From Enoplolaimus lenunculus (Eukaryota), in assembly GCA_030248215.1 (NCBI GenBank), contig JASANG010003810.1:248001-312000 (forward strand): a stretch of DNA of 64,000 nucleotides, given 5' to 3'. A program made the position numbers and the translations under genes. Within the stretch, counting starts at the first letter, position 1; each line of letters begins with the position of its first letter. The notes under the pieces are model-generated. The model was not told where the DNA came from and searched no databases. It saw only the letters and a list, made by a program, of their open reading frames with translations. Below are positions 10,939 through 64,000 of this stretch, one piece after another.

Positions 10939-11124
10939 GCTTTTCCAACTGCTTAGTTGAAAGGTCTGATTTCCCGCATCCTACCTAGACTGACACTACT
11001 GTTTACAGCGGGTTGGAGTGTGTTAACTGTAAAACCTAACTTAACTCGTTATTGCCATTCATTTCGTGTTCTAGGTGTTTGTTTGTTTGTTTGTTTTTGT
11101 AAAGTACTAACAGGCATATTAAAT

Positions 11125-26100: not shown

Positions 26101-29100
26101 AGCAACTACGAGTTTGAATGAAGACAAAGAAACACTTGATGGAAATGAGGAAAAACTGATGCAGCCGGGTAAAACGTGGGTTAGTGCTATGGCGAATCGT
26201 GGACCGGTAGCTCAAGGATTAGGAGGCTCTAGGGCTGGTGGTAGGTCTTTGAGTAAAGGGGGAATTGGAGGCACTGTTAGCGGAGAAGATGATGACGACG
26301 ACGAACAGCTATGGAATGTCGAAATGGAACAAGGAGCGTTGTTTTTTGATACAAGTTGGAAGCAAAAGTTTATTGATGCTGGGTTGGCTGGTGTCGCGAT
26401 TGAAAGGTTGGATGGTACCGAGCCTGCTGCGGAGGAAACAGACACTGGGGAGCCTTCCCGGTGTAGAGAGATGGGAGCTAGCACTGGTATACCTGGTCAT
26501 GCTAGCTCTGAGCGGCTAGTAGACGTTGGTGATTCGCCGATGATAAATGGGTTCGTGGGATCAGGAACAGCCTCACCTAGACCGCCACAGCCCACTCCAG
26601 ATACGTTGTTGTTTGCGCCTCGAGCCAATATTGTCCCCACTGGGTGGAGTTTAGACGATACATCGGGCGATGCTGTCTTTGCGTCTGCTTCCACAGCTGC
26701 AAACGGCGGTTTCTCCACTGGCGTTCAGTTTTTGTCCCTTGGTAGCGCAAATGGTTTCGATCCTAATGCCCTGTTACAGGATATTGCGTATGATGAACAG
26801 TCGACAATGCTTGAGACCATGGCAAACCAGCAAAGCTCTGGGAGTAACCCAGGAGGGCGGGCGGCATCGCGTGAAAGACCGTCTCAGCAACGTGTGATTC
26901 AACCAAAGTTGAACGGGTATGTTCCTGTAAGTGTTGCCTCAGGGGTGGTTGACGAACAGTCTGTTATTTATGAAGTAGGTTCTGCTGCGAGTGCGAGCAG
27001 TACTGAGTTGGGAAGCCATCAGGTTGGACAAGCATTTGCAGGGGGTACTGGGACAGGCCCTGCGGCAACATACACAAGTTCGGATGACGCAAGCCATGTA
27101 CGACAAAATTTTCAAGTCAATTTTTCCTACTCTACACGGAGTTCACTGGCAAGTACTGAGCAACCAATTTCTCCCCATGAATTGACATTTGACGACTGTG
27201 ATACACGACCCCCGGATCCTACCATTGACTGGAGTGAGTTTGATGATTTGGCATTGGATGTGACAGCTAACAGCGGGCTAGTAGGGGATATAGGCAAGAC
27301 GGACCAAGAACCCTCAGCTGGTACTAGCCGGGTGTCAAATTTTGCCCTTCTATGTTCAGCTGATGAAGACTTGAATAAGTTGTTAGCTAGCGATATTGAA
27401 AAATCAAATAATGTGGTAGCTAAGTCATTATCGGAACGCGATCAATCTGAATCGAGTAGTTCTAGTAGTACTAGTGGAAGCAGTCGAAATTTGGCAGCGG
27501 AAACTGTGAATGGATCCCGGATTTGTATCCGAAATCGGAGCGATAGTTTTGACGGGCAAAATATGACGTTGTTCGACGGTGTGATAGAGCCTGATTTGAT
27601 ATTTGAGGTAAGCTGGTCAGCTAATGTTTGCTGTGAAAAATAAAAACCAAGTGTCGTTTTGGGCATTTTAAGAAACGAAATTTATAGTTATGGTTTTAAG
27701 TGCCTTGGCTGATGACTGCAAAGAATTTATTGTAAATTCTGCATAATGTTAATCTTATTTTTTGTGATTTGTAGAACAAAACACTAGAATCGTGTGATTA
27801 CGGCCCATCACCTGGTTTAATTCTACAAGCGCTTACTATGTCGAACGCAAATGATGGGTTCAATTTAGAAAGGCTGGAAACTGTGGGTGATTCCTTTCTC
27901 AAATATGCGATCACGGTATTTTTGTTCAAGAAACACTCAGATAAGCACGAAGGCAAATTGTCATTTTTACGCAGCAAACAAGTGTCAAACTATAACCTTT
28001 ATCGATTGGGAAAACGGAAGAATATTGGTAAATTTAGACCGTGGTTTTAGTTTGAACCATTATTCAGTTTAATGTTTTTGTCTTCATTTCGAGACATTAT
28101 GATGCGGGCATCTATTTTGCGTCTTCCGATAGACGTGCTTCGGTTTTTTCTCGTTCCATTTTTATCCACCGGAAAATAAGTTCTAACACAGAAGAGGAAA
28201 ATATTTTATTTTGTTGAAATTTTTTGTGAATCGTGCATGGGAATTACTAATCGTAATTTAGTTGGAATCATGTGTAACTTTCCGGCAACTGGTATTTCTT
28301 TACAATTTCCTCACATTGGGCAACCCCACGAAGACAGGGCGTTGCCCCTTCGGTCTCACTAACCATCAGCGTAGATGAAATCGCAGTATTCAGATGGAAA
28401 ATACCTGAGATATCCTTAATTAAAAAACAGAAAAAATATAAAAAGGTTCATGCAAATAAAAATATTTTAATTTCTTGACTGTGTCGTGTGAGATTTCAGG
28501 TGAGCTGATGGTTGCGGTGAAATTTGAACCAAGCGACAATTGGCTCCCACCCGGATATACACCGGCTGCTGGATTGTCTCGAGCAGAAAATGAAGGCGTA
28601 GACGAAGATGACGAAAGAATGGAACAAGTACTCGAAGGAGAAGTCGATCATGATAAGTTTTGTGAAGGTAAGTTCTACTACACTTATTCGTTTTCTAGTT
28701 GAAAATGAACGACTGTTTGAAAGTAATGGTAAGTGGAGCAAAATGATATCGCAAAGTTGTGAAAATTCATGCCGAAACTAGTGAAAATATATAATATCTT
28801 GATCTATCGGAAATAGAACGAGAATAGACTGTTGTCTTTTCGTTTTAATGACCTTTGTACAGACCAGGGCGGTACGTATTTTGCACTGATTTTTTTGCTC
28901 AGGTTAAGCGTCAATTTTGGTGCCTAAGTTGTCAATATATGGGTAACACTGTCTGCAAAAAGTGTAATCACTGATACTGGCATATTCGTATTATTAGTTT
29001 TTCAGAAATGTGTGACGTTCAAGATCCAAAAAGTTGGTACGCGGAAAGTGATTTTGGACCGAGTGTTCCGTACAATTTACTCATTCAACATTCGGTTCCG

Positions 29101-32100
29101 GATAAAAGTATCGCAGATGCCGTAGAAGCTCTGATTGGAGTCTATCTGTTGACGTACGGGCCGCACGGAGCTTTGCTGTTCATGAAGTGGCTTGGTCTGA
29201 AAGTGTTACCGTCGGTAAAAAGTTTAAATTTTGCGACAATTTGATTTGTAGCTTACTAGAATTTTTAGGTGATTGGTTTCAGTGAAATGTTCACGAATAA
29301 GAGAGCCGGGATAGGTGAAATAGGTGGTTCGTATTTTTGCTCTGGTGTCCTTAGATTGCTGGAGACAAGATAAGATCAGAATTTTGTTCAGACCATGCAC
29401 CAAATTTTGTAATAAAGATTAAAAGTGGCAGCTTTTTGTTACTGCGACATGAGTGAATGAATGTAATAATCAATTCTTACCCATCTCTTTTTTAATGTTT
29501 GCTGCACCTTTCTCCGTAACAAAACAATTTAGTATTTTACAGTGCTTTTAAGCAATATATGTGAATATATGTATATGTATATATGGCGGAGGTTCGGAAT
29601 ATAGACTCCCTAGGAATTAAAAGTATGTATTGTATTGTTGAGCGAAGCGAAACTCCGAGCAAAGCTCGGAGTTTCGCGAAGCGTTTTATGTTTTGTACTT
29701 GGGGGTCGAAAGGTGGATGTCCGTCTGTCCGTCCGAAAAGAATCTTATTAGCTTAATTGACAAGACAAAACTAGGACTTTTTAAATTATTTCAATAATTA
29801 TTAGGGTTTACTGGAGGTTTTTGGGTGCGAGGAATCTGAATAAATTGTTTACAAACCTCCAAAACCGATAATCGAATAGTTAGCTAATAGCTAATTTGCA
29901 TATTAGCTTAATTGACAAGACAAAATTAGGACTTTTTAAATTATTTCAAAAATTATTAGGGTGGCTGTAGTGTGTTCGAGCTTCGCTCAATAAATGTCGT
30001 GCCACTACGACTGGTTTTGACGTGCTGAGTTCAGTTCATAAGTAGCTAACGGCGCATTTGTTTGAGTTTGTAAATTTTGTAGAATCAAAAGCGATTCATC
30101 AAATTGGACACTTAGGATAGGGGTAAGTGAGCTGCAACATGCCACCGCATAACCATTTCTCCAGAATTTTTTAAATCGCGGCGCTGTACGACGCGTTACG
30201 GCGTCGCCCGAATTGCTACAAACTTATTCAGCTTTGTTATCTTTCTATTGTTTCAGGATGAAGATTTACCATTTGAAGCGCGGCCACCACTACTGGAATT
30301 TGTGCGCGAACCGACGACAGCGTTGCACGCCTTGTGGAAGCAACACAATTTCAGCGATGTTGAAAGAACCCTACACTATTCGTTTCGAGATAAAGCTTAT
30401 TTGGTTCAGGCTTTCACGCACGCTTCCTATCATTATAACCGGGTTACAGACTGTTACCAAGTAAGCGAGCGAAGTTTGCAGCTAGAGTTTTGCTGTGTGT
30501 TCGTCAGGGGTTTATTAGAATTATTGCTTTTCACTGCTGAATTCATGACTAAACGAAATTCCTACTCATGTTCCGGACTTTAAGGACGCAGTCAGAAAAG
30601 TTTGTTGTGTCGATTAAAAATCAAAAAGGTTTATATGTAGTAGTAGTAGTAAGCTTAAGGTTTAGGCTATTTTTTGCTTGGCTTAGGCTTAGGCTTAGGA
30701 ATATGCTCATTTACGATTAGACTTAGGCTTAGGAATATGCTTATAATACTGTTCCGCTCCTGTTCTTTACATTGGCCCGGATGGAATTAAATTTCTTGTT
30801 GGAAGCTGAGCTGTTTCAGTTTTGTTTCAGAGACTTGAGTTTCTGGGTGACGCAGTGCTGGATTATTTGATTACAAGGCATTTGTATCAAGACGAGCGAC
30901 AGCATTCCCCTGGTGTTTTGACTGATTTACGCTCTGCTTTGGTCAACAATACGATATTCGCTTCGCTTGGAGTGAAATATAAGTTTCATAAAGTGAGAAT
31001 GATTATAGATTTTGACGGCAGAATACTGATCGGTAGTTTAGAGTGGTGTTATAAGATTGTAGAACAATGACGGTCGGATACGTTAGCTCAAAATTGTAGT
31101 ACCTTCACGTAAAGCGTAAAGAGTTAGGTGGTGTAATAAGAGATGCAAAGGCATGTAAACGTTTTTATTGCGTATCGTTTTTAAGAATATCACTTCATAC
31201 TTAAATTTTTGGTTAACTGAAGCACTTTGCATAGGTCAATAGTGTCTTAGTGAACAAAATTAATCGTATATTTCTATGTCTCTTCCTTTTGTGTTTTAGT
31301 ACTTCCTGGCGATTTGTCCTGGCTTGTATACTGTGATTGAAAAGTTTGTTCGTTTGCAATCAGAACGTCAAGATGATCTCAATTTTGATGAAGAGGTTAG
31401 TGATATGTAAATTATGGGGCTCGAGACAGAGGACACGTTTGCCCTGTTTTGTTTCGTAATTTAAATTTGGTACTAGGCGCTTTGGGTGACCCGGCTTTTG
31501 AGGCCGGGTATGGCCGCCATTTGAGGCCGGGTAGGGTGGTTGATTTAAAGACACATTATACTTTGCTCGCAGCATAAAAATTTAAAAATAATTTTCGAAA
31601 AATGATAAAATATTTTCCTCACCAAAGGTCAAAAATTATTTTTCCAAACAAATTTTCAAAATGCTTAGAAAAAGTAGTCTTGATATCACTAACATGATAC
31701 ATCTTGATATCACGAACAGGATACATCTTGATATCACTAACAGGATACATCTGTCATATTTTTATCCGAAACGTAACTAAGTAAGAACTAGATGTCTTCA
31801 CTGGTAAAGTTCCATTTGGTGTGTTTTAGCTATATTTACTGGACACGGAAGGGGACGTTGAGGATGGTGAAGATATTGAAGTACCAAAGGCGATCGGTGA
31901 TATTTTTGAGTCCGTTGCGGGAGCGATATTTTTGGATTCTGGCGAGTCGTTGGATGCCGTATGGAGGGTGTATTTCAATTTGATGAAAGAACAAATTGGT
32001 AAGAAACGGCAGGTTGGAGTTGGTTATGATTTGCAGTGGTTTTGTTGGAAATTGAATTTGAGTAATTAAAAATTATACATTTGCATTGAGATAATTGCGG

Positions 32101-33235
32101 AATATGAAATATTTATTGTTTGTTTATTTTTAATTAATTATCAAGAAACCGGGCATTTGTAATTGTAACATTGTTTGTCTTCAGAAAAATGTTGTAAAAT
32201 TCCACCAAGGAATATTAAATATTTATTGTTTATTTTTAATTAATTATCAAGAAACCGGGCATTTGTAATTGTAACATTGTTTGTCTTCAGAAGAACGCTG
32301 TAAAAATCCACCAAGAAATATTAAATATTTTATTGTTTATTTTTAATTAATTATCAAGGAACCGGGCATTTGTAATTGTAACATTGTTTGTCTTCAGAAA
32401 AATGTTGTAAAATTCCACCAAGGAATATTAAATATTTATTGTTTATTTTTAATTAATTATCAAGAAACCGGGCATTTGTAATTGTAACATTGTTTGTCTT
32501 CAGAAAAACGCTGTAAAAATCCACCAAGGAATATTAAATATTTATTGTTCATTTTTAATTCATTATCAAGAAACCGGGCATTTGTAATTGTAACATTGTT
32601 TGTCTTCAGAAAAATGTTGTAAAAATCCACCAAAGTCACCGATACGAGAGTTGTTGGAAATGGAGCCAGAAACTGCCAAATTTTCGTAAGTTTTAACAAA
32701 AAACAATGTTTCTGCATTTTAACATAGTATTTTATAAATTATACCTTTACCTTATCCTAAATAGCTTGCTTGCGTTCTAGTGTTGTCTGGAAAGATGATA
32801 GCTCAATAACACTGTTAATAGGAAATCTTGATGAATGACAACTTTCATAGTGACCAGAGTTTTAGGTAGTGTCCCATATCCAAGTGTTCCAAATATTGTT
32901 AGTTGCAACTCAAAACTACTCTAAATAATTTTAAAGCAGAATTTGAAAATTTTACTAACTTTTTAAGCGTATGCAGCGTAATTTTGGCTTTGATGCTTTG
33001 AAATTTTAGGAAGGGTGAAAGGCTGGCTACAGAAGGCAAAGTTCGAGTCACCGTGGACGTTGCTGATAAAGGCCGTTTTACTGGACTTGGCCGGAACTAT
33101 CGAATAGCAAAGTGTACCGCAGCCAAACGGGCACTGAAATATTTGAAGTCTTTGGAGAGACAGCGGCGTCAACAACAACAGCGAGAGCAGTTGGCACGCG
33201 AGCAACGCGATTTAGATCAAGTTTCGGTTGATTGA
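11125..33235 (+). CDS. dcr-1: Dicer-1 endoribonuclease (helicase, DUF283, platform, PAZ, RNase IIIa, RNase IIIb, dsRBD), about 2250 aa
   Basis: 30 exons summing to 6753 nt, in frame: 11125-11181, 11818-11980, 13419-13510, 13674-13869, 14714-14952, 16263-16454, 16779-16892, 17612-17815, 18294-18437, 19187-19328, 19685-19785, 20113-20279, 21258-21396, 21706-21781, 22214-22362, 22729-22911, 23264-23477, 23888-24218, 24722-25063, 25266-25497, 25895-27607, 27775-28027, 28500-28667, 29006-29214, 30257-30460, 30831-30992, 31300-31395, 31830-31998, 32610-32685, 33010-33235. Motifs: [124 protein letters not shown]. The exon 6 start could alternatively be 16251. Confidence 0.97.
11353..11798 (+). mobile_element. 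Second, older tRNA-bearing TRIM, in Dicer intron 1
   Basis: 5' LTR 11353-11516 (TG...CA), 107-bp internal region starting with PBS TGGGGACTGCG and ending GAAAATTGGGGCA, 3' LTR 11624-11798 (TG...TA). TSD CGTAA/CGTGA (4 of 5). Confidence 0.85.
11387..11459 (+). pseudogene. tRNA-Val-like cassette (anticodon GAC) in LTR
   Basis: A box TGGCTCAGTGG, perfect anticodon arm TCTGC-CTGACAC-GCAGA, B box GTTCGAAAC, followed by GCTTTT. T stem is degenerate. Confidence 0.7.
12372..12756 (-). mobile_element. MITE, CAGGGTGCAACCGGAATT TIR family, Dicer intron 2
   Basis: About 385 bp, terminal inverted repeats, (ACCGGA)n subterminal motifs, TA-rich flanks. Highly similar to four copies in arrestin intron 7. 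Confidence 0.85.
15155..16107 (+). mobile_element. Helentron/DINE-1-like element, same family, Dicer intron 5
   Basis: Same termini, tandem units, GGAC microsatellite and 14-bp hairpin as 2687-3917. Confidence 0.72.
17171..17444. mobile_element. Degenerate MITE, Dicer intron 7
   Basis: Inverted termini GACAAGAGTGTGCAACT...AGTTGCACACTCTTGTC. Confidence 0.6.
18078..18235 (+). mobile_element. Degenerate tRNA-derived repeat; related fragment at about 1893-1975 (- strand)
   Basis: A-box-like TAGCTAAGTAG, shared block ATCGGTAATCCGT, decayed B box. Confidence 0.4.
20733..20869. repeat. Two-copy tandem duplication of about 60 bp
   Basis: CAGTAGCTyTCCGTCGTGCTTArGATCCCTTTAAGTTGCGrTAGGTTCA occurs twice. 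Confidence 0.8.
29637..30015 (-). mobile_element. Internally deleted Helentron/DINE-1-like element, Dicer intron 24
   Basis: Reverse complement of both ends of the 15155 element, with about two central units retained. Confidence 0.7.
32099..32633 (+). repeat. 106-107 bp tandem repeat, 5 copies, spanning the Dicer intron 28/exon 29 junction
   Basis: TTGTTTGTCTTCAG ends at 32184, 32290, 32397, 32503 and 32609, each followed by about 24 nt of exon-29-like sequence. Confidence 0.95.
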
Positions 33236-41000: not shown

Positions 41001-44000
41001 ACAAATAGTACGTAGATATTGTATGTGTTCTACCATGATAGGACAGGTTGACATGACATAATGCATGCTGCAATTAGAGTCGTTAGAACTCTCTTTAAGG
41101 GGAGAAGAACACCTCCCTGTTATTCTCCGTTTAGCGTTCGAAAACAGATCCCTTCACAGCTCGAATCTCCAGATCAAAGACTTCAAAGCTCGAATCTCCA
41201 GATCAGAGACTTCAAAGCTCGGATCTCCAGATCAGAGACTTCAAAGCTCGATCTCCAGAGCAGATACGTCAAAACTATGATCTCAAGATCAGAGATTTCA
41301 AAGCTCGGATCTCCAAATCAGAGACTTCAACGCTCGGATCTCCAAATCAAAGACTTCAAAGCTCGGATCTCCAGATTAGAAACTTCAAAGCTCGGATCTC
41401 CAGATCAGAGACTTCAACGCTCGGATCTCCAGATCAGAGACTTCAACGCTCGGATCTCCAGATCAGAGACTTCAACGCTCGGATCTCCAGATCATAGACT
41501 TCAAAGCTCGGATCTCCAGATCAAAGAGTTCAAAGCTCGGATCTCCATATCAGAGACTTCAAAGCTCGGATCTCCAGATCAGAGACTTCAACGCTCGGAT
41601 CTCCAGATCAGAGACTTCAACGCTCGGATCTCCAGATCAGAGACTTCAACGCTCGGATCTCCAGATCAGAGACTTCAACGCTCGGATCTCCAGATCAGAG
41701 ACTTCAACGCTCGGATCTCCAGATCAGAGACTTCAAAGCTCGGATCTCCAGATCAAAGACTTCAAAGCTCGGATCTCCAGATCAGAGACTTCAACGCTCG
41801 GATCTCCAGATCAGAGACTTCAACGCTCGGATCTCCATATCAGAGACTTCAACGCTCGGATCTCCAGATCAGAGACTTCAACGCTCGGATCTCCAGATCA
41901 GAGACTTCAACGCTCGGATCTCCAGATCAGAGACTTCAACGCTCGGATCTCCAGATCAGAGACTTCAACGCTCGGATCTTCAGAACAGAGACTTCAACGC
42001 TCGGATCTCCAGATCAAAGACTTCGATGTGTTCTCAGAAAAAAATGATCCCTAAGCCCAACCCAAGATTCTTACGACCTTGTTGAGATCATAACACAATT
42101 AACCTGCACTATGAAATTTTCATAGAACGTTATTCGATTTCCAAAATCATAATTACACCCCCTTTGGTTACGCCCTCTTTGGTTACACCCCCTCTTCGAG
42201 TCGTACAAAAATAAAATTGAAACCAACCTCTTTATCGAGCGACACTTCCATATGCAAAAGGCCCGGGCACATCATAAACTCCTTTGAAACTTCAACTGAT
42301 GGTTGCGGTTTGCGACTGTCACTTGATGCGTATGTCAATTTGCGCAGTGCCAAACGTACACAGCCCCTGAAACAACAACAACAACATAATTCACTTTAAT
42401 TCAAGAACGGAGGGCAACGAAGCGCAAACAACGATAAACGTTTTTTGCATCCACATATTGGTCTTTGATATCAACGTATTCGTGCGCATAATATTTCACG
42501 GATATGGACACAAACTATTGAAGGAATGTGAACACTTATGCCACATGACCACCGAACTGTGTCTCAGCCGCAATTTCTCTATAATTTCGGTCGATACTTG
42601 TTGCGGTATTCAAGTTCTGAAATAGCAACACAATATACATACTTGCCGCTTGTCAGGGTTGTCTGAGATCACGGCTGGGATACGTCCACAAGTCATATGT
42701 CTCAGTTACATAGTTTTTTACTCACACCCTTAACATAATATGTTAAGTGTGTGAGGAAAAAAACTATGTAACTTACCGGAATCGGAACAGCAAATTTATG
42801 CCGGAATCGGAATCGGAACTACAAAGTTTATGACTGTACGGATAATTTGCATTAACAAGTACAATATTGATTTATGGTGTCTGTTGGTCGGCAATAATTA
42901 TCAAAAACGTCGCATGAACAAATTGGCAATCATTTTTTGACTCTGTAAAACTAAACTACAATCAATTATTGATAAGTTAACTCATCGAAAACAATTTAAT
43001 AGACAAATGATGCAGAATTTTTATACAACATATCACAGCAAGTAGGGCTAAAATTAAAATGTGGAAATTCCGATTCCGATTGATTGTGCAATCGGAATCG
43101 GAACTCGTTTTGCATCGGAATTCCGATTGCACCTTGTATATTACATATTAAAAATATACTGCAACAATGACCAGCCCGCTCGAATACATCTCAAATCGTT
43201 GCCTTCCTCATTTTTCAAGACCCTTGACTCAAATAATTTAGCTGAGTCAAATAATTTATCTGAGTCAAATAATTTAGCATTTCAGCTAATGATAATAAGT
43301 AGTATAACATGACAATTACAATAACTTTAAACCTCCAGTTTTTACGCAATCCGTTGAACCCGCCCCTGATTCATAATAAAAAATTCAATGTCTACATATT
43401 TCAAAATAACTCATCACCGCTCAAACTTTTGCAACAAACTGTATTAACGTTGTCTTAGCTGCGTCATACATACTACTTTTTTTAAATGCGTCTAATACGC
43501 GTTCACTACCAAACTACCAATAATGGTACGCCTACACAACACATCATCAATCCATATACGTAACTGTGAGCCTGTTTAAAATAATTTATTTCCATCAATG
43601 CTTGCTTGTAAACTGAAAAATCCATTCTATTACATTATGAACAACGACTTGTTTTACATATCCGAATGCAGCTAAACCAAGGATGCAACCGGATATTACA
43701 ATTCACCCGAACCGGAAAGTGAAACAATGTCGCAACCGGAACCGGAATTCCGGTTGCATCCTGATCGAAACCTATTTTTTAGCTTACACGCTGACTATGA
43801 TTTATCCAGATAGAAACGGGCTAAAAATGTTTTCCGTTCTCAACCCAACCTTACAATTTCACAAGCAAGCTTGCCTTGGCTTTGACAAAATATATTATTT
43901 TTTTGTTCAAAAGTTGACAATGTTACAAATATATACATTATTATAATAATACGTACGTGTACCTACCAGGGATGAGCCGTCTCGGTCAAAGACACGAGAC

Positions 44001-47000
44001 CAAGTCTGAAACCGAGTCTGACACCGAGTTTCATCCTACCGAAACCGAAACTTTTAGTCTCGATCTCGGTCAATTTTTAATCGTTACCAAAAAGAAAAAG
44101 ATTTTTTCTAACCAAAGTTTTGAATATTTTTATCTGCTCATCGCTTTTTCATCCCTTTGGTATCGATTTGCAAGCCACCGAGACTACTCCGAAAAAGCGA
44201 GTCCGAGAAAACACATCGCTGAATATTGTCCGATTCGGCTGTTTCACAACCGAATCCGAACCAGAAATTTTTACTGAAACCGAATCCGAAGCTTTGTTTG
44301 CAACCCTGATTTGAATCACTTTTGTTCTCAAATTACAACGACTTCACCAAGAGCCTGTGTAGGGGTTACCGATCAAACGCCATTTTAAATTCTTTCTGAC
44401 TCGTTTGTAGACTCTTTTTCAGCTGGTGACACAAGAACTCCCCCCTTCATAATTTAAACAAAATGTAACACCCCTTTACTAACTTCTCGCTACACCCCTG
44501 ATCAACCTAATACGTATATATGAACCATGGTCACTAGCCATACCTAAACCTCAAACTATACATAAATAATACTTTATATATATAAAGCTTAAATTTCTAC
44601 AAACACATATCTAAACATAATATTTAAATATGTGTAAGCTTAGAACAAAGTCTGCCCAAATCTAGCATATCGTACGTACCATATTTCTAACCCACCGACA
44701 CTACCAATAAACCGTTGCGACCTTCACCTTTATCAAATTCATCGCCCTAAAACCCAGTAGCAGTTCAAGAAACCCAAGATATACATATACATATACATAT
44801 ATATAGTAAATATATATGTAATATATTATATATGTAGTATATTATATATACTATAAACAAGACATTTCATCTACTTTATCATATCTATCGGTCCTGTGTG
44901 CCAACAACATTTGCCCAATACGTATATATTACGGTTCATTTTCAGAGCCAACAACCTGGTTGAACATATGGTGACGCCACAAGCCTATCTAACGTATCAC
45001 TGTCAGAGCTTCAACAGCTGTCTAAAAGCAATCGCTATACCGCCCGACCATTTAAACCAACGATTACGCTCTGTGTACGTTAGTATCGACCCCTTCACAG
45101 ATAACATAAACTGACGCCAATTTCAAAAGTTTCACGATATTTTCCGCCCATCCTTGGGGGTACAACCCAAATATCACTTTTACAATCGATGTATGTAACC
45201 GTGTTGTCCAAGTTAAGATGCCGTCTATACGCAACATCACATCTATGTCGCAGTATTTAGAGCGCTTTTAGCCAATTTTTTCAAACAGCTAAATAGGCTT
45301 ATTAACGCTCCTGATCAATCCTTACTTTGACTTCAGATAAACACTACTGATTTACTCGACTTAGCTTACAATGTGTACGCTTGACAAATTGATTCTTACT
45401 AGGACAAAACGTGGTTCGAATATTGGCAACCCTATTTGTTCTCATATTTATTAGGCTAGCATCAGTTTACTTTCTGTGCCTTAAACGTCTCGCATCTGCC
45501 ATCAATATATACGTATGTCGTAGCCCAACCCATAATTCAGCCCAAATTCCGCATTCGGCTAGTCCAGCGCGGAATTACAACCCGGGCTAGCCCACGGCGT
45601 AATTGATTCTCGGCTACAAATGCACGCCTTGTGATTGGTTACTACCTTAATGCCGTAGTCAAATACAATTAGCTGGTACGAATACTTTTTTCTGATTGGC
45701 TAAGTAATCGTTAAGTATGAGTTGTTTACCAAAAAAAGTTAGTTTATTTTACTAAGCTAATTTGCCACTATCACGTAACCAATCAGAAAGGAAAACCTTA
45801 AATCAGACATGGTTCCGCCTTGGGCTAGCCCGCGTCGTAATTCCGCTTTGGACTAGCCCAATTCGGAATTGGGCTCAATTACGACTTGGGCTACGACATA
45901 TGTCCGTCCGTAGTTACGTAAATCACTTTGCATATACCTATATTTCACCAATAATTGTGCCGATTAATCGGCATCGGTAATAATCGGCAGTTTTCGTGAG
46001 TATCGGCATCGGCACTGCAAAAAAAAATGCCGATTCTTTGCGAGATACTTTTTGCACATAACAGTCAGTTTGAATGCTATGAATATCATTTCTGCGCGCA
46101 TATCACTGTGTCCGGTCAGGAAAACTGATATCTTTCTTGCGTTTGTGTGAAAAAATATTAATTGAAATGAACCGTTCGTCTAAAATTATAATCGTTTAGG
46201 ACGGTTAGGGCAAAATTTCAAAATGACAATCGGCATTGGTATCGGCATCGGCAAAAATTTTGGTATCGGCACATTCCTTATATATTGTCGAGTTACAATT
46301 TTAACCTGCAAATCTTCACGGTCCAATCACGCATCCAGTCAGCCACAACGCTCCAACATCACCTAAACACTACAATTGACTCAAAGCGGACACCACTGTT
46401 TTCCCTGTGACCTCTCCTTACCGATGCACTTCTTTATTGGGCGACTACCACCAATAAACCAAACGACATACACGTTTATATGATTAGCCTGTTTTTTTCC
46501 AGCCAATGCCAACCTTTCAAACCGGTTAATATGAACTCAATCTCGTAGACCAGCGAAAACCCGTCTTCATCTACTGCTCAGTTAATAAATAAATAAATAA
46601 ATAAATAAAACCATACATACGTCAGCGGCTTCAATTGCATTAAATCGTCAAAAAACAACAAAATAACAAAACAACAAAAATATATTATGACATACATACC
46701 TGGTGTATATATCTTTCATACCTTCATAAAATTATATATACGTATCAGGGTGCAACCGGAATTACAATTTACCGGAACCGGAATTTGAAAATTTTACAGG
46801 AACCGGAACGGGAAAGTGAAAAGTGCATTTCACCAAAAATTTCATTTTAATCGTATTTTTTGCTCTATTATTTGTGAAACAACCTTAGTCGAACATAGGT
46901 ATTAATTTTATTTGTTGTATTTTAGATTTTGGTCGTAGACTGAAGTGAAATCCACCATCAACGGCTTATACTCGGAGTACAAGTGGCTTTCAAAAGAGAT

Positions 47001-50000
47001 TCTTAAAAATTAGCAAAGTTAAGAAAACGGCCAAACTATAACACAGGAATTTTTTAAATCCGGTAAAAATTTACCGGAACCGGAACCGGGAGGTGAAAAA
47101 ATGCCGGAACCGGAATTCCGGTTGCACCCTGATACGTATGTATATAAGCAATCTACGATAATTCATCGGCCGACAACCTGTCGTCCAACAGTGTCCTAAA
47201 GCCTATGAATAAACATAAACATTATCCTGCGTCTAAGACTACGCGCCTAAACATAAATGATGGGTAACCAATTGTCGAGTCAACGGAATTTGCGATTACT
47301 CGTTGTCGGGCACCGACGAATTGTCGTCATTTAAATAGAAAAACTCATTCTGGATGCAAATTTCTACTGGAAGTTAAGTTGGAACAGCTTGCTCTTGTCA
47401 TTACGTAAGCGTTTCGTATTCGACGTATATAATCGCGGTACGTACCCTATTGAAAATGCCAAAATCCTTAAACAAATGCTGTAGCTGAGCTGGGAAAAGT
47501 ACATATGATAAATTATAGAGTATGACACAAATTGAAAATTTTGACAGTACACGCTCAGACAATTTTAGAACAATAAGTTAATATGTCAATTTTTCTTAAA
47601 TTTTCGAATGAACAATATTTTCAATACCGAAAATATCGGAAAATTCTGGTGAAAAAAGCCGGATTCATTACCGAAACCCGATAGTATAAAATACCGGTGA
47701 AATAACCTTAGTTGAATATACGTATTTACTTAATCTGATGTATTTTAGATTTTCATAATCCACAAAACGCAATCTACCTTCTATGGTTTATTTTCGGTAA
47801 TTGTCAAGGTTTATATTCAGGGTGCAACCGGAATTACAATTTAAAGGAACCGGAACCGGAATTTGAAAATTTTACCCGAACCGGAACCGGAAAGTGAAAA
47901 ATGCATTTCACCAAAAATTTCATTTTAATCTTATTTTTTGCTCTATTATTTGTGAAATAACCTTAGTCGAACATAGATAGGTACGTATTTATTTTATTTG
48001 TTGTATTTTAGATTTTTATCATCGACTGAAGTGAAATCCACCATCAATGGCTTATATCCGGAGTACAAGTGGCTTTCAAAACAGATTCTTAAAAATTAGC
48101 AAAGTTAAGAAAACGGCCAAATTATAACACCGGAATTTTTAAAATGCCGTAACCGGAATTCCGGTTGCACCCTGGTACTATACTAATGAAATCTACTTAA
48201 TTTTTATCATTTTTTAGTAAAACGTTTAATTTTCACCGACTAAAATATACTACCGCAGTTTTTAATTTCGATAAAAATTTACCGGCGCCGGAAGAGGAAA
48301 AACCCCCGCAACCGGGATTCCGGTTACACCCTCAGATATATGTATGTATAAAAATATATATGTGTGTGTGCATTGTAGGTTTTACCAATTATACCCGTTC
48401 CCTTATAATACAGATCCTTTAGTAACCCCAACAATACATATATGTTAATAATTACAGCTCTGCCTTAAAAATCCAACCAGAGTTCGGCTTGTGTTCTAAT
48501 TAGCCCAACTTACAAACATTTACACAAACAACATTAATATTTCCGGCTATAGACGCAACAAAAATCCGTAATATCCGCTTGCAATAGCTGACGATCGAAT
48601 AAAAACTCTGTTGCATATTCAAGGAAATTAAACGCCATATTATTTCCGGTTACATCGCTCGTTATAAACACCGAGAATAACTATCAAAAAATAATCATAC
48701 ACAACGACGGCTGTAAGGAGGAGACGAGGAAATATCCCGTCTAAAATTGCAACAATGAAATTAAAAAAAATAACCGCTAATACCGCAGAATGGCCAAAAT
48801 ACCGGCTGAACTTAAGCATACGCTCAGAATAGCAACAAAAAAATATGAAAACAACAAAGACGTCGCGACCGGAAACGGATATTAGTGAAAAATAACTGTT
48901 ATTAAAAATTCAATTTTTAGCACAATTTCACTTTAAATATTGCCACCATATTACGGCCTTTTCATTAGCGCCGGCGTTAGGATATTCGGCCGTTCCAAAC
49001 AGGTCCAAGGGCCAAGAGACCTTCAATTAACTGTTTCACAGCTCAGTAACTTCGTGGTCTGCGAAAAAAAAATCAGTTTGTTATGATGGGCCCCTCAAGA
49101 CCAAGGGTCGACCCCCACTTGGGAGATTCTGGGGGCGCGATTACGCCGGCACTCCTTTTCATCGTTCACAATAAAATTTAAAACACAATACTTTTTGATA
49201 CGTATTTAAATTTAACTGCAAAAACTGTTATTATATAAAAAAAGCATCTGTCTCACCATTGACATGTTTAACTAAATAAAATTCTTCAAAACAAAGTATT
49301 AACAAACTTAAACGTTGCCTTTTCAGACACTAAACTAATAGCTATGTAAATACCGGAACAAACAAAATAAAGCGAAAAATACCACCATATTTTAAAGCGA
49401 AGCCGACTTGCTAAGATACCGGATTTTCATTCCCGAATTCCGATTGCAATATTACAACAGCATCACGTTCCCATGTTTTGACCAGTGACCAGACACACGC
49501 CACTCCGGAATTTCTGATATCCAGCACCGCAGTTAACTACATGCATACATAAATACATATTATTCATACAGTATTTACACACATCTATATATCTATATAT
49601 ATCTATATATCTATCTATCTATATATAACAAGGGTGCAACCGGAATTCCGGTTCCGGCATTTTTTCACCTTAAGGTTCTGGTTCCGGTAATATTTTACCG
49701 GATTTAAAAATTCCCGTGTTATAATTTGGCCGTTTTCTTATCTTTGCTAATTTTTACAAATCTCTTTTGAAAGCCACTTGTACTCCGAATATATATAAGC
49801 CATTGATGGTGGATTTCACTTCAGTCGATGATGAAAATCTAAAATACAACAAATAAAATAAATACCTATGTTCGACTAAGGTTATTTCACAAATAATAGA
49901 GCAAAAAATAAGATTAAAATGAAATTTTTGGTGAAATGCATTTTTCACTTTCCGGTTCCGGTAAAATTTTTAAATTCCGGTTCCGGTAAATTGTAATTCC

Positions 50001-50949
50001 CGTTGTACCCTGATCCAGATATATATACATATATATACGTATATATATATCAGGCTGCAACCGGAATTCCGGTTCCGGTTGCGGCATTTTTTCACATTCC
50101 GGTTCCGGTAAATTTTTACTGGATTTAAAAATTTTGGTGTTATAATTTGGCCGTTTTCTTAACTTTGCTAATTTTTAAGAATCTGTTTTGAAAGCCACTT
50201 GTACTCCGAATATAAGCCATTGATGGTGGATTTCACTTCAGTCGACGACGAAAATCTAAAATACAACAAATAAAATAAATACCTATGTTCGACTAAGGTT
50301 GTTTCACAAATAATAGAGCAATAAAATAAGATTAAAATGAAATTTTTGGTGAAATGCATTTTTCACTTTCCGGTTCCGGTAATATTTTCAAATTCCGGTT
50401 CCGGTAAATTGTAATTCCGGTTGCACCCTGATCCAGAGATATATACGTATATAAATATGTATATATTATATATATATATAACATATACATTACACGTAAA
50501 AATTCACAAATTTCCCTCAAACACCGACCCTGACTCAAAAACAACACGCACCAAAAACGAAACACTTCACTAAACCAAATACATACGCACTTTACATAAT
50601 CGCGCAACACAGCGATAACCAGAAACAACAAACAGACAAACCGAACAAACAATATATACTTACGTACGTATACAGCAAAACACAACTCTATGAACCCGAC
50701 AACGAAACCTTTAATCAGAATAGTCAATTTTCTTCAACCTTCACAACAATCTGATCACTACTCTAAACTACACAGTCGAGACCTAATTATCAATCTATGC
50801 AGCGTTACAAACGCCTAAAAGCTGAACAACCATCTCAGCGGCGGCGGCAATCAGCAGCCATAACAAAATCTCAAACACACTCACCTGCGGTTGACAGCAA
50901 AACCGTTTGCGATACGCTCTTTCTTGCATAAATGCTTCACATACAGTTG

Positions 50950-55191: not shown

Positions 55192-56897
55192 AGCCGCTTA
55201 TTATTTCACAACCAAAAAATGATAGACACAAGTCGCTTTGATGTTTAGATTGTTTCAGCCTAGAATCAGCTAAAACACCGGAATAACAATGAATACGTTC
55301 AAGCTACACATACGTATATATGCATATATCTCATTAGTGTACATTTAATCCAGCCATCCATGTGATATCATACAGGATATTAGTGATGCGACAATACCAA
55401 AACTTTTGCCGATGCCGATACCGATTCTTATTCTGAAATTTCGCCGATGTAGATAACGATGCCAATTTTAAAATATTACTAGATCACTTCATTATAGGTC
55501 CAAACACTTAAACCTTGACTACCATAAACGGTTACTATTTTATGTTAAAGGGACATTTCAGTTAATTTTCTCAAACACAAACGCAAGAGACATAACAGCT
55601 TCCTGAACAGATTATATGAACCAATAGGTGAAATTGATAGCATTCCATCTCACTGCTAAGTGCGAAAAGCATCGGCAAAAAATAGTATTTTTTTACAATG
55701 CCGATGCCGATACGCAAGAAAAGGATCGATATTACAGATTCAAATTAATCAGCATATCCCCATACTCCTGAAATTTGGTTCCACAAATATTAGTGTTGCG
55801 ATTCAGAGCTATATATTATACATACGTAATGATGTGGCCGAACATGGTCAAAACAAATATATTATATCAACTAGTAAAATCAGTAGAAACACTGTAAATA
55901 TATACTTCATCACAACAGATGTTTACACCGTAAAACATTTGTTAGAAACTAAAAATAGCCCTGCGATAGCAATCTTGTTAACGCTGCCGAACCTATGCCA
56001 TGAAAGCCCCAGAACTTACTTGTTGCCAATAGTTAACAAGCTATTTAAGGCAAGTAAATGAACGTTTCGCAACCGCGACTGTTATGTCATGTTACGGTTA
56101 TCGGTTGGACTTAAATACAGGCATATATATTTACTGCGACGCTTTTTCAAGTTCTGCAGACAAATATCAGAATATACACTCAATGGCTGCAGGTTCAGAA
56201 ACAATGTGCCTAACGAATCACTTTGCAACATATTACTCATATATTCAAACCTGCATCAAAGCAAGAAACCATTCTGCAAAATATTCGTCACGTGACTACT
56301 AAACATTAAAACCAGAAAATCAATCATAGTGCTCACAAGAAAAACACAAATGCCATAACAACTAAGTATGTATCACATTATTACGCCGAGCAGTAATCGT
56401 AACACTTAGACATAGTCTTCCTCACATCAGTATAATAGTTTTTTCTAGCTTTGTAGCTGCACCTTTGTACATTATTTGTGCTAAAAACAGAGTGTTTCTT
56501 ACATTAGCAGGTTCCAAATTGTTATAGTTTTTTCAAACTTTGTAGCTTAACTAGTTATGTACTTCGTTATACTTGTGACATGCGGATGCATAGAGACAAC
56601 TAATAACCTCACACTGATGCTGCACATCGGTAAAAATCACTGCTGCAAATGTAGTGATTTCAAATGCAGCAGCAATAAAAACACGGAAGAACCAAGATGC
56701 GTGCGTATAATGTTGAGGTTCTTATAAGGCATAAAAATAGAAAAACTCAGAAGTTGATTGTGAGGCAGCGTGACTCAGTGGGTAGCGCGCTAGACTGATA
56801 ATCTGTCGACCGAGTTCGTAGCCTCCTGGGAGCGTCCCTCATTTTCAGCTGTTAACTCAGAACTAAAAACCGTCGTACCCAAACCTACCCAAGTTAT

Positions 56898-57107
56898 TGT
56901 CGGTATATGTGCACGTAAGTGTGTGTAAAGCAAATGTTGCCATGCCTGTGCACATATACCGGTATAAGAAGTTGTTGCAATGGCCGCGTGGTGTAGTGGT
57001 TGCATGCTTGGCTCGAGCGCAAGAGGGCCGAGGTTCGATTCCCGGCGTGGTCATTAACTTTGGGCAGAACTTCAAACAGGGGTCGTGCAGACCGTATAGT
57101 ACCAACA
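56898..57107 (+). mobile_element. Nested solo LTR with tRNA-like cassette
   Basis: Termini TGTCGGTA...TACCAACA, perfect TSD GTTAT (56893-56897 and 57108-57112). Internal palindrome GTATATGTGCAC...GTGCACATATAC upstream of the tRNA-like part. Confidence 0.78.
56982..57053 (+). pseudogene. tRNA-like sequence inside nested LTR
   Basis: 72 nt. Acceptor GGCCGCG/CGTGGTC fully pairable, A box TGGTGTAGTGG, B box GGTTCGATTCC. Anticodon and T stems are imperfect; isotype not assignable. Confidence 0.65.
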
Positions 57108-59595
57108 GTTATCACAATACTGTTTCTTACTTGGCACTTCTGTGTACGCATACACAACAATTTAATACAAAGGAATGTTTTACTTTCTAGTGATATTCAT
57201 ACAACAAAGGTAACTCCCAGGATAACACTAGAGCGACAGTAAATATTTATAATTATCCAAACATAATTCATTATTAAAAACGCTTTGGAGATCACGAAAA
57301 CATCAGGATTACGGCACCTACGGCCAGACCTCAATAGTCTTGAACATGATCCACTTCTGGATAAACAAAGAACAAAAGGTCGAAAGCCAACAATGCACAG
57401 TATAATGAAATATCGATTTTACACAAAGAAATCTTAATCTGCAACATTGAAGCAAAATTTATACTAGCTACGTATCTTTCACTATTAAAAGATAGCGCTT
57501 TGTAGTTGTAAAGTTAGCAAGAATTGACACATTACAGGCATAGGCAGCAGCTCTACAGCAGCTATAACTATTACCTTCCGTATTTATAATTATCAAGCTT
57601 GTTTGATTTTATCACCGCGCGAACCTTTTTAACACATGGGTTATTACACTTTATAATGTTTGTATCACTGCACTCTTCGAAATTTATAAATTGTCAAATT
57701 GACAGGGCAAATATAACACAGCAAAAAAATTGCAGTCAAAATATAAATTAATACCTTTTGAGGTTCGCGTTCGAGCAGTAAAAAATCTCCACAAGAGGTG
57801 AAATGTTTCCGGTTCAAAAATTAGGAATGCAACTCCTAGCGCACATTAATCTCTAAGATAGAGACTGAAACTATTTTTAAGAATGTATTATGCTTTTGGA
57901 TGCAGAAAGGACAGTGTTCCCACTGAGTTGTTTCATATCTGGGACCACAAAGGTCACGAGCGGATCACTTTTCCGCGGGACTGCAAAATAACTAAAGCAG
58001 CCTTGATGCTTGACTACTCCTAATAATATGCCTATACTACTTTTAATACGATCTAATATTATTTTCATTTCCACTTTGTGAAAACGTACAAGGGCCGAAA
58101 ACTATTTAAATTTTGCCATACGTTCTTGCGCTACACAATTTTTTATTACACTATAAAGTATGGAATGTTTAAAAAGAATTACATTTTATACCTGTTGTGA
58201 CTGAGAGTTTAGCCTCATATAAGATGTACCAGTTGTTGCATACAGTCCCACTGTTCAAATTGCCGACGCAATTCAGCAGGTGGAACTGTATGTTTCGTGT
58301 CTTTATTAGAGGCACTCAAAAATCAAATGTTTACTGTTCTTTTGTGACACTCACACAGCGGTTGCAATACTGTCGCTTTTAACCAAAAAATACATAATTT
58401 TTCAGCAGTCACACAGGTTTTGGTTCTCAAACATTAGTTATATTTTGTTCAGCGGTTCATACAATGTATGATATGTAAATGCTAAATGCGCCCTGTTTTA
58501 TATATCGATACCTCTCCAAAACAATACCTGCAACATTTTTTGGTATATACCTATATATGCAAGCGGGGTTTATGCACAGATCTTCATATTTAGAGAGAGA
58601 GCAATGTGTTCAAGCTTTACGGGCTCATATTGTATCCAATTTTAACTGGGTAAGTAGTGTTGAGTAAAATAATTGAGAAAAAATATTTAAAAATGTAATA
58701 TTATACAAACCGCAGCAGCGAATCACACTAAACAATTGTGGGAGGGCAACAGAAACAGTTCCTTCAACGGTGTACAGGTTTGAGAGAAAAAATAAATGTA
58801 CAGTGTTTGATGGTGGTCTCTAGGGTATGCAGGCACTGAGAGTGTAAATGTGCTACATCAGCACCGTATCCCCCTCGTTCGATTGCATTAAAGCTTTTCG
58901 CTCAACGACCAGACATTTTGCATTGCTGTCTGGGTCAGATAAAGAAATGAGCACATTATGGGTATTTTTTTCGGTTTTTAGCCAGTTTTAAAAGCGTGAA
59001 AATCTATATAATTTCATAAGATTTTAAAATCAAAGTATATGCCTCGTAAGGGATTGAGACATCAGCCAATGTATTAAAGAACAGGGGCGGAACAGTATTA
59101 CTAGCATATTCATTAGCCTGAGCCTAGCCTAAGCCTAAAGCCAAGCAAACAAATTAGTGTAAAGCTTAAGCATACTCTTTTCCAGTATCCCACAGAAAAA
59201 CTCTTTGCCCCCTGATCTTTACATGGTCCAAGACATCTTGTGGTCAAGATTAAATTAAGATAGACTGCAGTTTGAATTTTACATTTAAAACTGGACAATT
59301 TGTGCAAAAATCAGTGCAAAAGTAATAATGCATTTAGTTTTCGCACATATTTTAAACAGCACAACGAGCGGCATTATCTTAAACTTTTGTTGAGATACGT
59401 TTATGAAAACATTATTCATTACGTGTGCTGAAAGAATTGAGTCGTTTCGTTTGTAGTTTTTAGAAAATCACATCTATGAAGCTGAAATGACCCACATACG
59501 TATTTTGCACAGCGTTCCAGCGGATTTTTGCAAACATACGTATGCAAAAACAACTAAATAGTAAAAATATGAGGTTTTTGCATTATGCGTTGTTA

Positions 59596-62477: not shown

Positions 62478-62812
62478 TAACCCTAAACATTAGAATGCGC
62501 TCATAGCTAAGCCTAAGCAAAAATTAGTCTAAAGCTTCAGCTTATTCTATTTCAGTCCGACAGAAAGGCGCTTAATTCCTGATATTTCTTTACATGAGCC
62601 TAAATGATTTTGTTTGTGTATTTTCATGCGCCGGCGCACCAAATCGTGTGTCTACTGTGAGCTTAGCTGATCCTTCGTTTGATGGCAATAACGAAGCACA
62701 ACCTTGCAGTCGCTTTGCCAATTTACGTCAAGTTTACGAGACTAAAATTATGCCACTTCAATCTACGTTAAGAATTGACGAGTTGATACCGGATGTACAC
62801 GAAGGTATTATA

Positions 62813-63642
62813 ATGATTACAAATTACAATCCTAAGTTGAACATTGGAATCATCAAAAAAATTGTGTAAAAAATTCTTTGTAGTTGTTTTTTACGAAAGC
62901 CCGTATGCGATCCTTAAAAAGGAATTCTTAGCGTTAAAACTGTACCGTTCCTGATTCTGAAGTGCGCTCCGTGACTGATCCTGATTCTGCTCCATTTTTT
63001 TCTGGTTGACTCGGTTTCATCGGTGTAACGCACTTGCGTCTATTGTTTGGCATTGCTAAATGTGTAAACTTAGCTATTATAATGTAAACTACAGCGCTCC
63101 GTATTAGTTTCTGTGGTTTATTTTGATGTGTAGCTTAAATTAAACCATTTACAATCGTCAGACAACGACCTTAAGCCTAATCTAACCGAGATGAACCTAT
63201 TGACTACCTTATCAGTTACCCGAACCGGGAAATTGTTGGTTCTTTCAATAGGTTCCACTCGGCTAGATTAGGCTTTACATCTTTGGCTGACGATTCTAAA
63301 TTCGCTTAATTTAAGCTACACCTCAAATTTATTCATAGAAACTAATACGGAGCTCTGTGGTTTACATAATAACAGCTAAGTTTACACATTTGGCAATGCC
63401 GAACAAAACACGCAAGCTCACTTCACCAACGAAACTGAGTCAACCAGGAAAAATCGAGCAGAATTAGACTCAGTCACGGAGCGCACCTCAGAATCAGGAA
63501 CGGTACGGTTTTCCGGTTTTCAGCGCTAGGAATTTTTTTAGGATCGCATATATACCGACTTTCTAAAAAGCAATTGCAAAGAATTTTGACACAATTTTTT
63601 GGTGATTACAATGTTCAACTTACGATAGTAATTTGTAATCAT
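62813..63642. repeat. About 830-bp imperfect foldback palindrome
   Basis: ATGATTACAAATTAC...GTAATTTGTAATCAT. The arms are colinear over about 400 bp, with the centre near 63225. Confidence 0.92.
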
Positions 63643-64000
63643 ACAAAAGTGGGTAATTTTTCCGAATCAATATATTTGTTCCAACTGTCAGTTGGACTAC
63701 ATTGGTTCGACCAATCGACAATTTTTTAAACGCATTTGCGAGCACCAGCAGTTTCCAGATAGCACCCTCAATCAAACTAAGTCAAGTTCAACATTCAAGT
63801 CAACTATCACAGACGACAGTCACAGTTGCGGTCTTTTTTACTTTTCTACAATCTCTGCCAGTTCTCGTCAGAGCACCCCCTCTAGATACAACTTCGCTCT
63901 CTATGACCTCGAATCACTCTTCATACGCGATTTACGACCTAAATTGAATCTGCAGAGCAATACTTATCGCTATAGAATAATTGTCACCAAAATTTTCATC
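63643..64000 (+). mobile_element. Penelope-like retroelement fragment (GIY-YIG endonuclease)
   Basis: Stop-free frame from about 63668 to the window end: QYICSNCQLDYIGSTNRQFFKRICEH...LYDLESLFIRDLRPKLNLQ, matching the CxxC-YIG-T-R-R-EH and E-x3-I-P-LN pattern of Penelope-type endonucleases. Confidence 0.75.

Follow-up and report, generated by a model that had tools for sequence, protein, structure and literature searches.

Nested solo LTRs with tRNA-like cassettes upstream of an arrestin gene in a likely early-branching nematode

The window analysed here, by which we mean the whole stretch of 64,000 nucleotides, contains upstream of an arrestin gene two solo long terminal repeats (LTRs), one inserted in the other: an outer LTR of 328 bp, which spans 56574-57116, is interrupted 4 bp before its 3' end by an inner LTR of 210 bp (Table 1). 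Each of them is flanked by a target site duplication (TSD) which matches exactly at 5 bp and fits neither at 4 nor at 6 bp, and the terminal inverted repeats measure 5 bp in the outer LTR and 3 bp exactly (or 7 of 8) in the inner one. An earlier reading made from the sequence alone had proposed an outer TGTGA...TCACA element flanked by ATACT, an inner element flanked by GTTAT a few nucleotides from the outer 3' end, and a position about 1.4 kb upstream of the arrestin ATG. The exact duplications and the contigs ending at the same borders (see below) bear out both elements, and the distance to the candidate ATG at 55191 on the minus strand is 1383 bp. Taken alone, the motif is weak: TG..CA pairs with a 5-bp duplication, whatever their inverted repeat, number 206 in the window, and those which also have a 5-bp inverted repeat number 6, against 0 to 8 per shuffle. 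A nested pair of such motifs is found once in the window and in none of ten shuffles.

Table 1. Coordinates of the features discussed in the text (positions in the window).
Feature	Positions	Strand	Remarks
Outer TSD, left copy, ATACT	56569-56573	+	sequence read
Outer solo LTR up to the inner insertion, 324 of its 328 bp (main part), begins TGTGA	56574-56897	+	sequence; loose contig ends at both borders
Tail of outer main part, GTTAT (its last 5 bp), target site and left TSD copy of the inner LTR	56893-56897	+	
Outer cassette, decayed, tRNA-like	56764-56836 (3' end approximate)	+	A box 56771-56781 and B box 56814-56822, each with one mismatch
Inner solo LTR, 210 bp, TG...CA, starts TGTCGGTA, ends TACCAACA	56898-57107	+	sequence; loose contig ends; two-LTR joint
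Inner LTR palindrome, in the 5' (U3-like) region	56901-56961	.	14-bp perfect arms, z = -5.0
Inner cassette, tRNA-like	56982-57054	+	A box 56989-56999 and B box 57033-57041; anticodon CGA, body with short variable loop
Inner TSD, right copy, GTTAT	57108-57112	+	
CACA, final 4 bp of the outer LTR, severed by the inner insertion	57113-57116	+	continuation of other outer copies
Outer TSD, right copy, ATACT	57117-57121	+	
D1, complete two-LTR element of a third family	10423-10995	+	573 bp; 5-bp TSD CTACT
Parts of D1	first LTR 10423-10659; second LTR to 10995		107-bp internal part with tRNA-Pro-type primer site and short purine tract
D2, related two-LTR element in Dicer intron 1	11353-11798	+	446 bp; 5-bp TSD with one mismatch
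Arrestin candidate start codon	55189-55191	-	1383 bp from the outer LTR

Both LTRs had been read as containing a tRNA-like segment with A and B boxes. This stands for the inner one, whose cassette is found by ARAGORN and by the Rfam tRNA search (43.2 bits), and the palindrome noticed before that cassette is real. For the outer LTR it stands in a weakened form, the cassette of this copy being decayed: its Rfam score of 17.2 bits (E 0.34) falls short of the 29-bit cut-off, and ARAGORN gives no match even at a 70% threshold. Its A and B boxes are 43 nt apart, and such pairs with one mismatch each arise 0.75 times per shuffled window. At the two mismatch sites the box consensus is matched by 90% and 99% of the contig depth, so that the letters of the window are those of a minority. 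A run of four T is found near the outer cassette (56842-56845), and the + strand of the inner LTR is devoid of any such run and thus lacks an evident Pol III stop. A tRNA-Ser requires a long variable arm. The inner cassette, with a Ser anticodon and no such arm, is hence likely not a working tRNA, and it is likely, as far as the sequence can tell, that the cassettes act as promoters and not as working tRNA genes.

We looked for other copies in contigs of the same organism, obtained from three DNA runs of one study (X1, X2 and X3, of which X1 and X2 come from the same sample; in X3 the flanks of the nest are barely covered). No RNA run stood among the runs listed, which has no bearing on expression. 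The summed contig depth, about 30 in the flanks, climbs to 10^4-10^5 within the LTRs. Among the matches listed, loose contig ends gather before 56574 (54 and 44 contigs), behind 56897 (63, 60 and 42), before 56898 (45) and behind 57107 (75 and 70), and the flanks at these borders agree at only 0.36-0.45, which means that dozens of distinct flanks are present. The depth ratios to the flanks, about 10^4 for the inner and 10^3 for the outer LTR, are upper bounds on copy number, and the dozens of distinct flanks are a lower bound. Outer copies deprived of the insert continue with CACA directly behind 56897 in all three runs. The sequence-only reading had proposed that the LTR interpretation would fall if homologous copies failed to end at the TG/CA boundaries; dozens of them end there, with differing flanks. 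It had also suggested that complete elements with two LTRs should be sought. For the inner family one exists, since in each of the three runs one contig joins 57100 to 56898 with 94 letters between them, which leaves an internal part of about 87 bp and an element of about 507 bp. The exact borders in dozens of copies, the uninterrupted outer copies and the two-LTR form of the inner family show together that we are dealing with LTRs and not with SINEs.

The outer family gives a similar joint, from 56897 to 56574, on single contigs in two of the three runs; the length of its spacer is unseen, and two adjacent solo LTRs could give the same joint. In X1 and X2 a purine tract (GGGGAA) closes the consensus flank that precedes 56574, and no primer site emerged from the contig flank consensus behind the outer LTR. 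Conversely, no purine tract was seen in the flank consensus before the inner LTR, and the consensus behind 57107 starts with TGGAGG, which looks like a primer site, in X2 only, X1 (the same sample) having given unrelated letters; this putative site may resemble tRNA-Gln. Exact-pattern scans of metagenome contigs gave no match. The depth falls from 94,317 at 57100-57109 to 107 at 57110-57119 and to 30 beyond, which means that the nest junction is single-copy and rules out that the outer and inner LTRs were amplified as one composite unit.

The window contains a third family, at the Dicer gene, and it is only in its two members, D1 and D2, that primer site and purine tract were both seen directly. 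D1 lies between the divergent IleRS and Dicer genes, 130 bp before the candidate ATG of Dicer, and 357 bp from D2. The two LTRs of D1 are identical at 226 of 237 positions, and the internal parts of D1 and D2 at 87 of 107. The D1 primer site matches the 3' end of tRNA-Pro, as displayed in the available part of the Helenus supplement, over 8 straight bases (11/13 by eye). No support emerged for self-priming by the cassettes: the primer sites of D1 and D2 share at most 8 complementary bases with the four cassettes compared. Local alignment scores are 16-21 between the three LTR families, against 79 within the Dicer family, which leaves no clear similarity between families; the earlier suggestion that the tRNA-in-LTR design is used by several families of this genome is thus upheld by three of them in one window.

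Two genes of the window inform on the host. In a quick Dicer tree, which includes two nematodes and no Enoplea or Nematomorpha, the window is sister to Caenorhabditis plus Steinernema (SH-aLRT 100); the exon of RNase IIIa alone is nearer to arthropods. Among the arrestin matches most of the named ones are nematode and the best named one is a moth. The host likely belongs to an early branch of the nematodes, outside the Caenorhabditis-Steinernema group.

The reading which we hold to be by far the most probable is that the locus consists of two solo LTRs, each from a different multi-copy family of the tRNA-cassette design known as Helenus/TRIMp3, nested by chance, in a host that is likely an early-branching nematode; that chance alone accounts for the nesting is likely. 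The class name refers here to features of design, and not to homology with the published Helenus families. In such elements, the published Helenus included, Pol III would start at the cassette of the 5' LTR, cross the short internal part and end after the cassette of the 3' LTR, a host tRNA would prime reverse transcription, and the enzymes would be supplied in trans by an autonomous LTR retrotransposon, one with an integrase that makes cuts staggered by 5 bp. Recombination between LTRs would then leave a solo LTR, of the outer element first and of the inner one later. The outer copy is indeed probably the older, as it carries minority letters at no fewer than 21 places when compared to the contigs, and the inner one at no fewer than 4. 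A motif scan found no RT or gag motif of an autonomous helper in the window. BEL/Pao would be our first guess for this helper, a Copia or a 5-bp Gypsy clade being possible as well. In Drosophila the duplications measure 5 bp in Pao families and 4 bp in Gypsy families (PMC3276498, in the part available), and BEL/Pao elements occur in almost all the nematode genomes surveyed (PMC3118150, in the part available). Our literature search found nothing on the length of BEL/Pao duplications in Caenorhabditis.

The alternative that comes closest to the chance nest, and that we still regard as unlikely, is a preference, common to the families, for open chromatin where protein genes start, the nesting being a by-product of the hot spot. 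All three loci of the window are indeed near gene starts (D1 before the Dicer ATG, D2 in the first intron of Dicer, the nest before the arrestin ATG), but three loci in one gene-dense window are few, and the first exons, with any trans-splicing, are predicted only. Quite improbable is a helper integrase tethered to TFIIIB/TFIIIC or to Pol III at tRNA genes and at its own cassettes, so that families pile up, which develops the earlier suggestion of a Pol III-guided insertion like that of Ty1 and Ty3. The insertion point of the inner LTR lies some 56 bp downstream of the outer cassette, 80 bp from the outer B box, no fewer than four further contigs link outer to inner sequences (the junctions found favour those matching the query on both sides, and their counts are minima), and D1 and D2 are close neighbours. 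Ty1 and Ty3 insert upstream of Pol III genes, the former in a window of about 1 kb and the latter 1-4 bp from the start site, so that the nest is on the wrong side for them, but the dictyostelid elements Skipper-2 (8-23 bp, or about 140 bp in other species) and TRE3 (40-150 bp) do target downstream (PMC5911963, in the part available). The other junctions have unlike offsets and order: in one the inner LTR precedes an outer cassette by about 133 bp, and another has an outer end that leads into the 3' end of an inner cassette; each of them is read from a single contig and from one side. Moreover, the consensus flanks at both inner ends are AT-rich (agreement 0.36-0.39) and resemble neither a tRNA nor the outer LTR, and the boxes of the outer cassette are damaged in this copy, though this damage may be of any age. 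Targeting in the manner of Ty1 and Ty3, as suggested earlier, finds no support here. Given the several other cross-family junctions, nesting may be mildly enriched. A stronger version, a nematode radiation of tRNA-promoter TRIMs relying on a BEL/Pao integrase drawn to Pol III complexes, including those on their own cassettes, is a long shot; if true, the families would be landing pads for one another, and an animal would display Pol III-directed, self-attracting LTR insertion.

Two further alternatives concern the elements themselves. They could be LTRs of ordinary large autonomous retrotransposons with a tRNA-like piece rather than TRIMs, mainly in the outer family, whose internal part was never seen and whose LTR of 328 bp exceeds the longest Helenus LTR in the available part of the list, 323 bp. 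We consider this very unlikely, since the inner two-LTR form has a tiny internal part in all three runs, single contigs carry the outer 3'-to-5' joint in two of them, and D1 and D2 measure 573 and 446 bp. That they could be ordinary tRNA-derived SINEs, or else tRNA pseudogenes, whose TG/CA ends and duplications match by chance is scarcely conceivable: the 206 motif pairs of the window speak for such matches, but these very borders recur in dozens of other copies, the cassettes start 84 bp (inner) and 190 bp (outer) inside the 5' end, there is no tail, the duplication is fixed at 5 bp and two-LTR forms exist.

Returning to the TRIM reading, the type of element is already published as Helenus/TRIMp3 (Kojima 2024): in the available part of that work, TRIMs with a tRNA promoter are listed from six animal phyla, with elements of 311-1263 bp, a range into which the inner element and D1 fall. 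The likeness extends to TG...CA LTRs, an internal A/B-box cassette, many solo LTRs, several families per genome, a disagreement between anticodon and body, and, between the LTRs, a short non-coding stretch that holds a primer site and a purine tract, both of which are seen directly here in D1 and D2. The host group and the 5-bp footprint differ from those reported there for animals. All four insertions of the window have a 5-bp duplication (one with a mismatch; 4-bp fits fail in all four), whereas every animal row of the available list that gives a value has 4 bp, and 5 bp stands in fungal and plant rows only. The outer LTR is also longer than any listed, and the inner LTR bears a U3-like palindrome, a feature of which the available part makes no mention for Helenus. 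Nematoda has no match in the part of the supplement available, so that tRNA-promoter TRIMs would be extended to a likely seventh animal phylum and the published split in duplication length is broken. As this split served to assign Gypsy and Copia helpers, a third type of helper (BEL/Pao) becomes a testable idea, at which the 5-bp duplications of the window hint. Helenus is regarded by its author as having arisen several times (Kojima 2024, in the part available). By title and abstract we found no nematode TRIM with a tRNA in its LTR, most subscription papers and Repbase being outside this search. Cer7 of C. elegans may have a tRNA-like piece, but our literature search did not confirm this and nothing here relies on it.

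Other known systems share part of this design, as far as the available parts of the papers go. Ajax, a TRIMp3 of nemertean worms with 5-bp duplications, and Cassandra of plants are small, have two LTRs and bear a Pol III promoter within the LTR (PMC10886601), and the cassette-to-cassette transcript of Cassandra is the model for the mechanism proposed here. Their cassette derives from 5S rRNA, whereas ours is tRNA-like and no 5S match to Rfam is found in the window; a retrozyme or 5S-type element was likewise rejected, as no such Rfam match occurs in the window at E<=1. Skipper-2 and TRE3 resemble the nest by inserting downstream of and close to a Pol III promoter, but these elements, like Ty1, Ty3 and DGLT-A, are autonomous and have a fixed insertion window at true tRNA genes of compact genomes (PMC5911963); no fixed offset is seen here.

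Finally we must note that, unless a genome-wide excess appears, the nest is an ordinary dated pair of insertions, and that judging from the letters alone we saw no effect of it on the arrestin gene. The two calls that ARAGORN makes in the window both fall on LTR cassettes; such LTRs will therefore inflate tRNA gene counts in this genome.

The outer and the inner element are two solo LTRs, one nested in the other, as the sequence-only reading had described them: the coordinates hold, and the ATACT and GTTAT duplications are exact at a length of 5 bp, with no fit at 4 or 6. Once the inner element and one GTTAT are taken out, a 328-bp outer LTR results, of which only CACA lies past the second GTTAT. 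Motifs of this kind prove little by themselves, because the window contains six TG..CA pairs with a 5-bp duplication and a 5-bp inverted repeat against 0-8 per shuffle (206 pairs when the inverted repeat is not asked for). A nested pair of such motifs occurred in 0 of 10 shuffles.

Features of the window, in order of position
Feature	Position	Strand	Remarks
Isoleucyl-tRNA synthetase exons (presumed, from motifs)	about 1000-9020	minus	divergent from Dicer
D1, complete two-LTR tRNA-cassette TRIM	10423-10995		LTRs 226/237 identical; duplication CTACT
Dicer gene	11125-33232	+	multi-exon
D2, complete two-LTR tRNA-cassette TRIM	11353-11798		duplication with one mismatch
MITE-like elements, ~420 bp	12346-12789, 46733-48360, 49591-50471		terminal inverted repeats, TA-rich ends
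Tandem array	32099-32633		unit ~109 bp
Tandem array	41152-42024		units ~29/58 bp; several reading frames stay open
Long hairpin	42699-42778		mir-3003 Rfam match 36.8 bits, threshold 70
Outer element	56574-57116		between two ATACT copies
Inner element	56898-57107		between two GTTAT copies
Inner cassette	56982-57054		ARAGORN and Rfam, 43.2 bits

Three DNA runs from the organism of the window, all of one study, cover the region, with 2945, 4104 and 1608 aligned contigs; X1 and X2 are from a single sample, from which the window itself may derive, and X3 is from a second one. The contig depth in X1 is about 30 in the flanks against 10^4-10^5 within the element. Among 18 listed out of 1323 loose-end entries, 54 and 44 contigs have loose ends before 56574, 63, 60 and 42 behind 56897, and 45 before 56898; behind 57107 the counts are 75 and 70. 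The flank agreement is 0.36-0.45. Since the loose ends fall at the TG and CA borders, the elements pass the check set in the sequence-only reading and count as LTRs, not as SINEs. Behind 56897, the consensus opens with CACA in all three runs. This shows that some outer copies lack the insert, and that GTTAT stands twice through a true target-site duplication. In a contig comparison, the window's outer copy carries the minority letter at at least 21 places and the inner copy at at least 4 (one of four inner places being absent from a second comparison); this higher number fits an outer element older than the inner one.

From a joint running from 57100 to 56898 with 94 letters between, seen on one contig in each of the three runs, we infer that the inner family has a two-LTR form with an internal part of about 87 bp. 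The corresponding joint of the outer family (56897 to 56574), which gives no spacer length, is present in X2 and X3. In the flank consensus, a purine tract stands directly before the outer LTR in X1 and X2, and the letters behind the inner LTR begin with TGGAGG in X2, not in X1; the aligned contigs yielded no primer site for the outer family and, for the inner one, no purine tract.

A third family is represented at the 5' end of Dicer by two two-LTR elements, D1 and D2, whose internal parts (107 bp each) are identical at 87 of 107 positions. D1 lies 130 bp before the candidate Dicer ATG, while D2 lies within intron 1, ending some 20 bp short of exon 2 (11818), and its second LTR is without the B-box region. 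The D1 primer site matches by eye the 3' end of tRNA-Pro, as given in the Helenus supplement, over 8 straight bases. LTR local scores are 16-21 between the three families against 79 within, and the families have no clear LTR similarity.

The inner cassette has a CGA (Ser) anticodon and a short variable loop in its body, a combination that speaks against its being a functional tRNA-Ser. ARAGORN, at the 70% threshold, does not find the outer cassette, and a local Rfam search gives it 17.2 bits (E 0.34). The A box and the B box, each with a single mismatch, stand at a distance of 43 nt, such pairs arising by chance at 0.75 per shuffled window. At the mismatched places, 90% and 99% of the X1 contig depth matches the box consensus. 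This means that the decay is particular to the window's copy. Behind the cassette, a run of four T is present in the LTR of the outer element, in the two LTRs of D1 and in the 5' LTR of D2, and the inner LTR has no such run. The palindrome noticed before the inner cassette is real (z = -5.0); the D1 5' region gives z = -4.1, and the outer 5' region is not unusual as a whole (z = -0.7), one 50-nt part giving z = -4.1. Contigs related to the inner LTR diverge around its cassette (56981-57063), with loose ends at 57006 and 57054, and those related to the outer cassette diverge at 56781, which suggests that there are further subfamilies, or else repeats of a related tRNA origin.

The nest junction is single-copy, its depth falling over three bins from 94,317 to 107 to 30. 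The nesting had been taken to hint at Pol III-guided targeting like that of Ty1 and Ty3, an idea which is conceivable but which we find unsupported. The inner element lies on the downstream side of the outer cassette, at about 56 bp from it, whereas Ty1 and Ty3 insert upstream, and the available part of PMC5911963 reports downstream targeting from dictyostelids only. Among the joint entries listed (87 further ones exist), an inner start precedes an outer cassette by about 133 bp, an outer end runs into an inner cassette at its 3' end, 56897 is joined to 57050 on the opposite strand, and a fourth outer-inner junction has no spacer length given, each read from one side on one contig per run. As the offsets are not fixed, they argue against a tethering of integrase to the cassettes. 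Such junctions being several, there may be a mild excess of them, counted by a method which favours junctions matching the query on both sides. Clustering could also be due to nearness to gene starts, and all three loci in the window are near gene starts.

The Dicer PAZ exon has a Caenorhabditis protein as its only match at E<=1e-20 among 135 candidates; for the RNase IIIa exon, arthropod sequences come closest. In a quick-search tree of 19 Dicers, with 25 exon pieces for the window and with Enoplea and Nematomorpha absent, the window Dicer is sister to Caenorhabditis+Steinernema (SH-aLRT 100). Of 38 arrestin matches, most of the named ones are from nematodes, though a moth gives the best named one. 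Judging from these sequences, the host is likely an early-branching nematode outside the Caenorhabditis-Steinernema group.

By structure, the design of the three families is that of Helenus/TRIMp3, small non-coding LTR elements with a tRNA-derived cassette in the LTR. In the available part of PMC10886601, Helenus hosts belong to six animal phyla, Nematoda not among them, and every animal Helenus entry for which a duplication length is stated gives 4 bp, in contrast to the 5 bp of our outer and inner elements; Ajax, a 5S-type animal element, has 5 bp. The literature searched lists no nematode case of a tRNA-in-LTR TRIM, PMC13570524, in its available part, only citing Helenus. The locus is a real, modestly novel form of a known design, new in host group and duplication length.

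Beyond the anatomy, copy structure and nesting order, which are observed, a mechanism can be proposed by analogy with Cassandra (PMC10886601, available part): a Pol III transcript would start at the 5' cassette and end shortly behind the 3' one, reverse transcription would be primed by a host tRNA, an autonomous element would lend reverse transcriptase and integrase, and LTR-LTR recombination would leave solo LTRs. BEL/Pao may serve as a first guess for the helper, because Pao families make 5-bp duplications in Drosophila and Gypsy families 4-bp ones (PMC3276498, available part), and because BEL/Pao is reported from almost all surveyed nematode genomes (PMC3118150, likewise). The guess is weakened by the tRNA-Pro primer site of a bivalve Gypsy (PMC10886601) and by the fact that no helper was found.

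Elsewhere in the window, Dicer includes a long, low-complexity open stretch of 582 aa (25895-27643) between PAZ and RNase IIIa. The MITE-like family has several copies, some in tandem, and the hairpin is likely a palindromic repeat. Fragmentary open frames at about 62570-64000, with a YIG motif near 63698, presumably belong to a decayed GIY-YIG/Penelope-like element.
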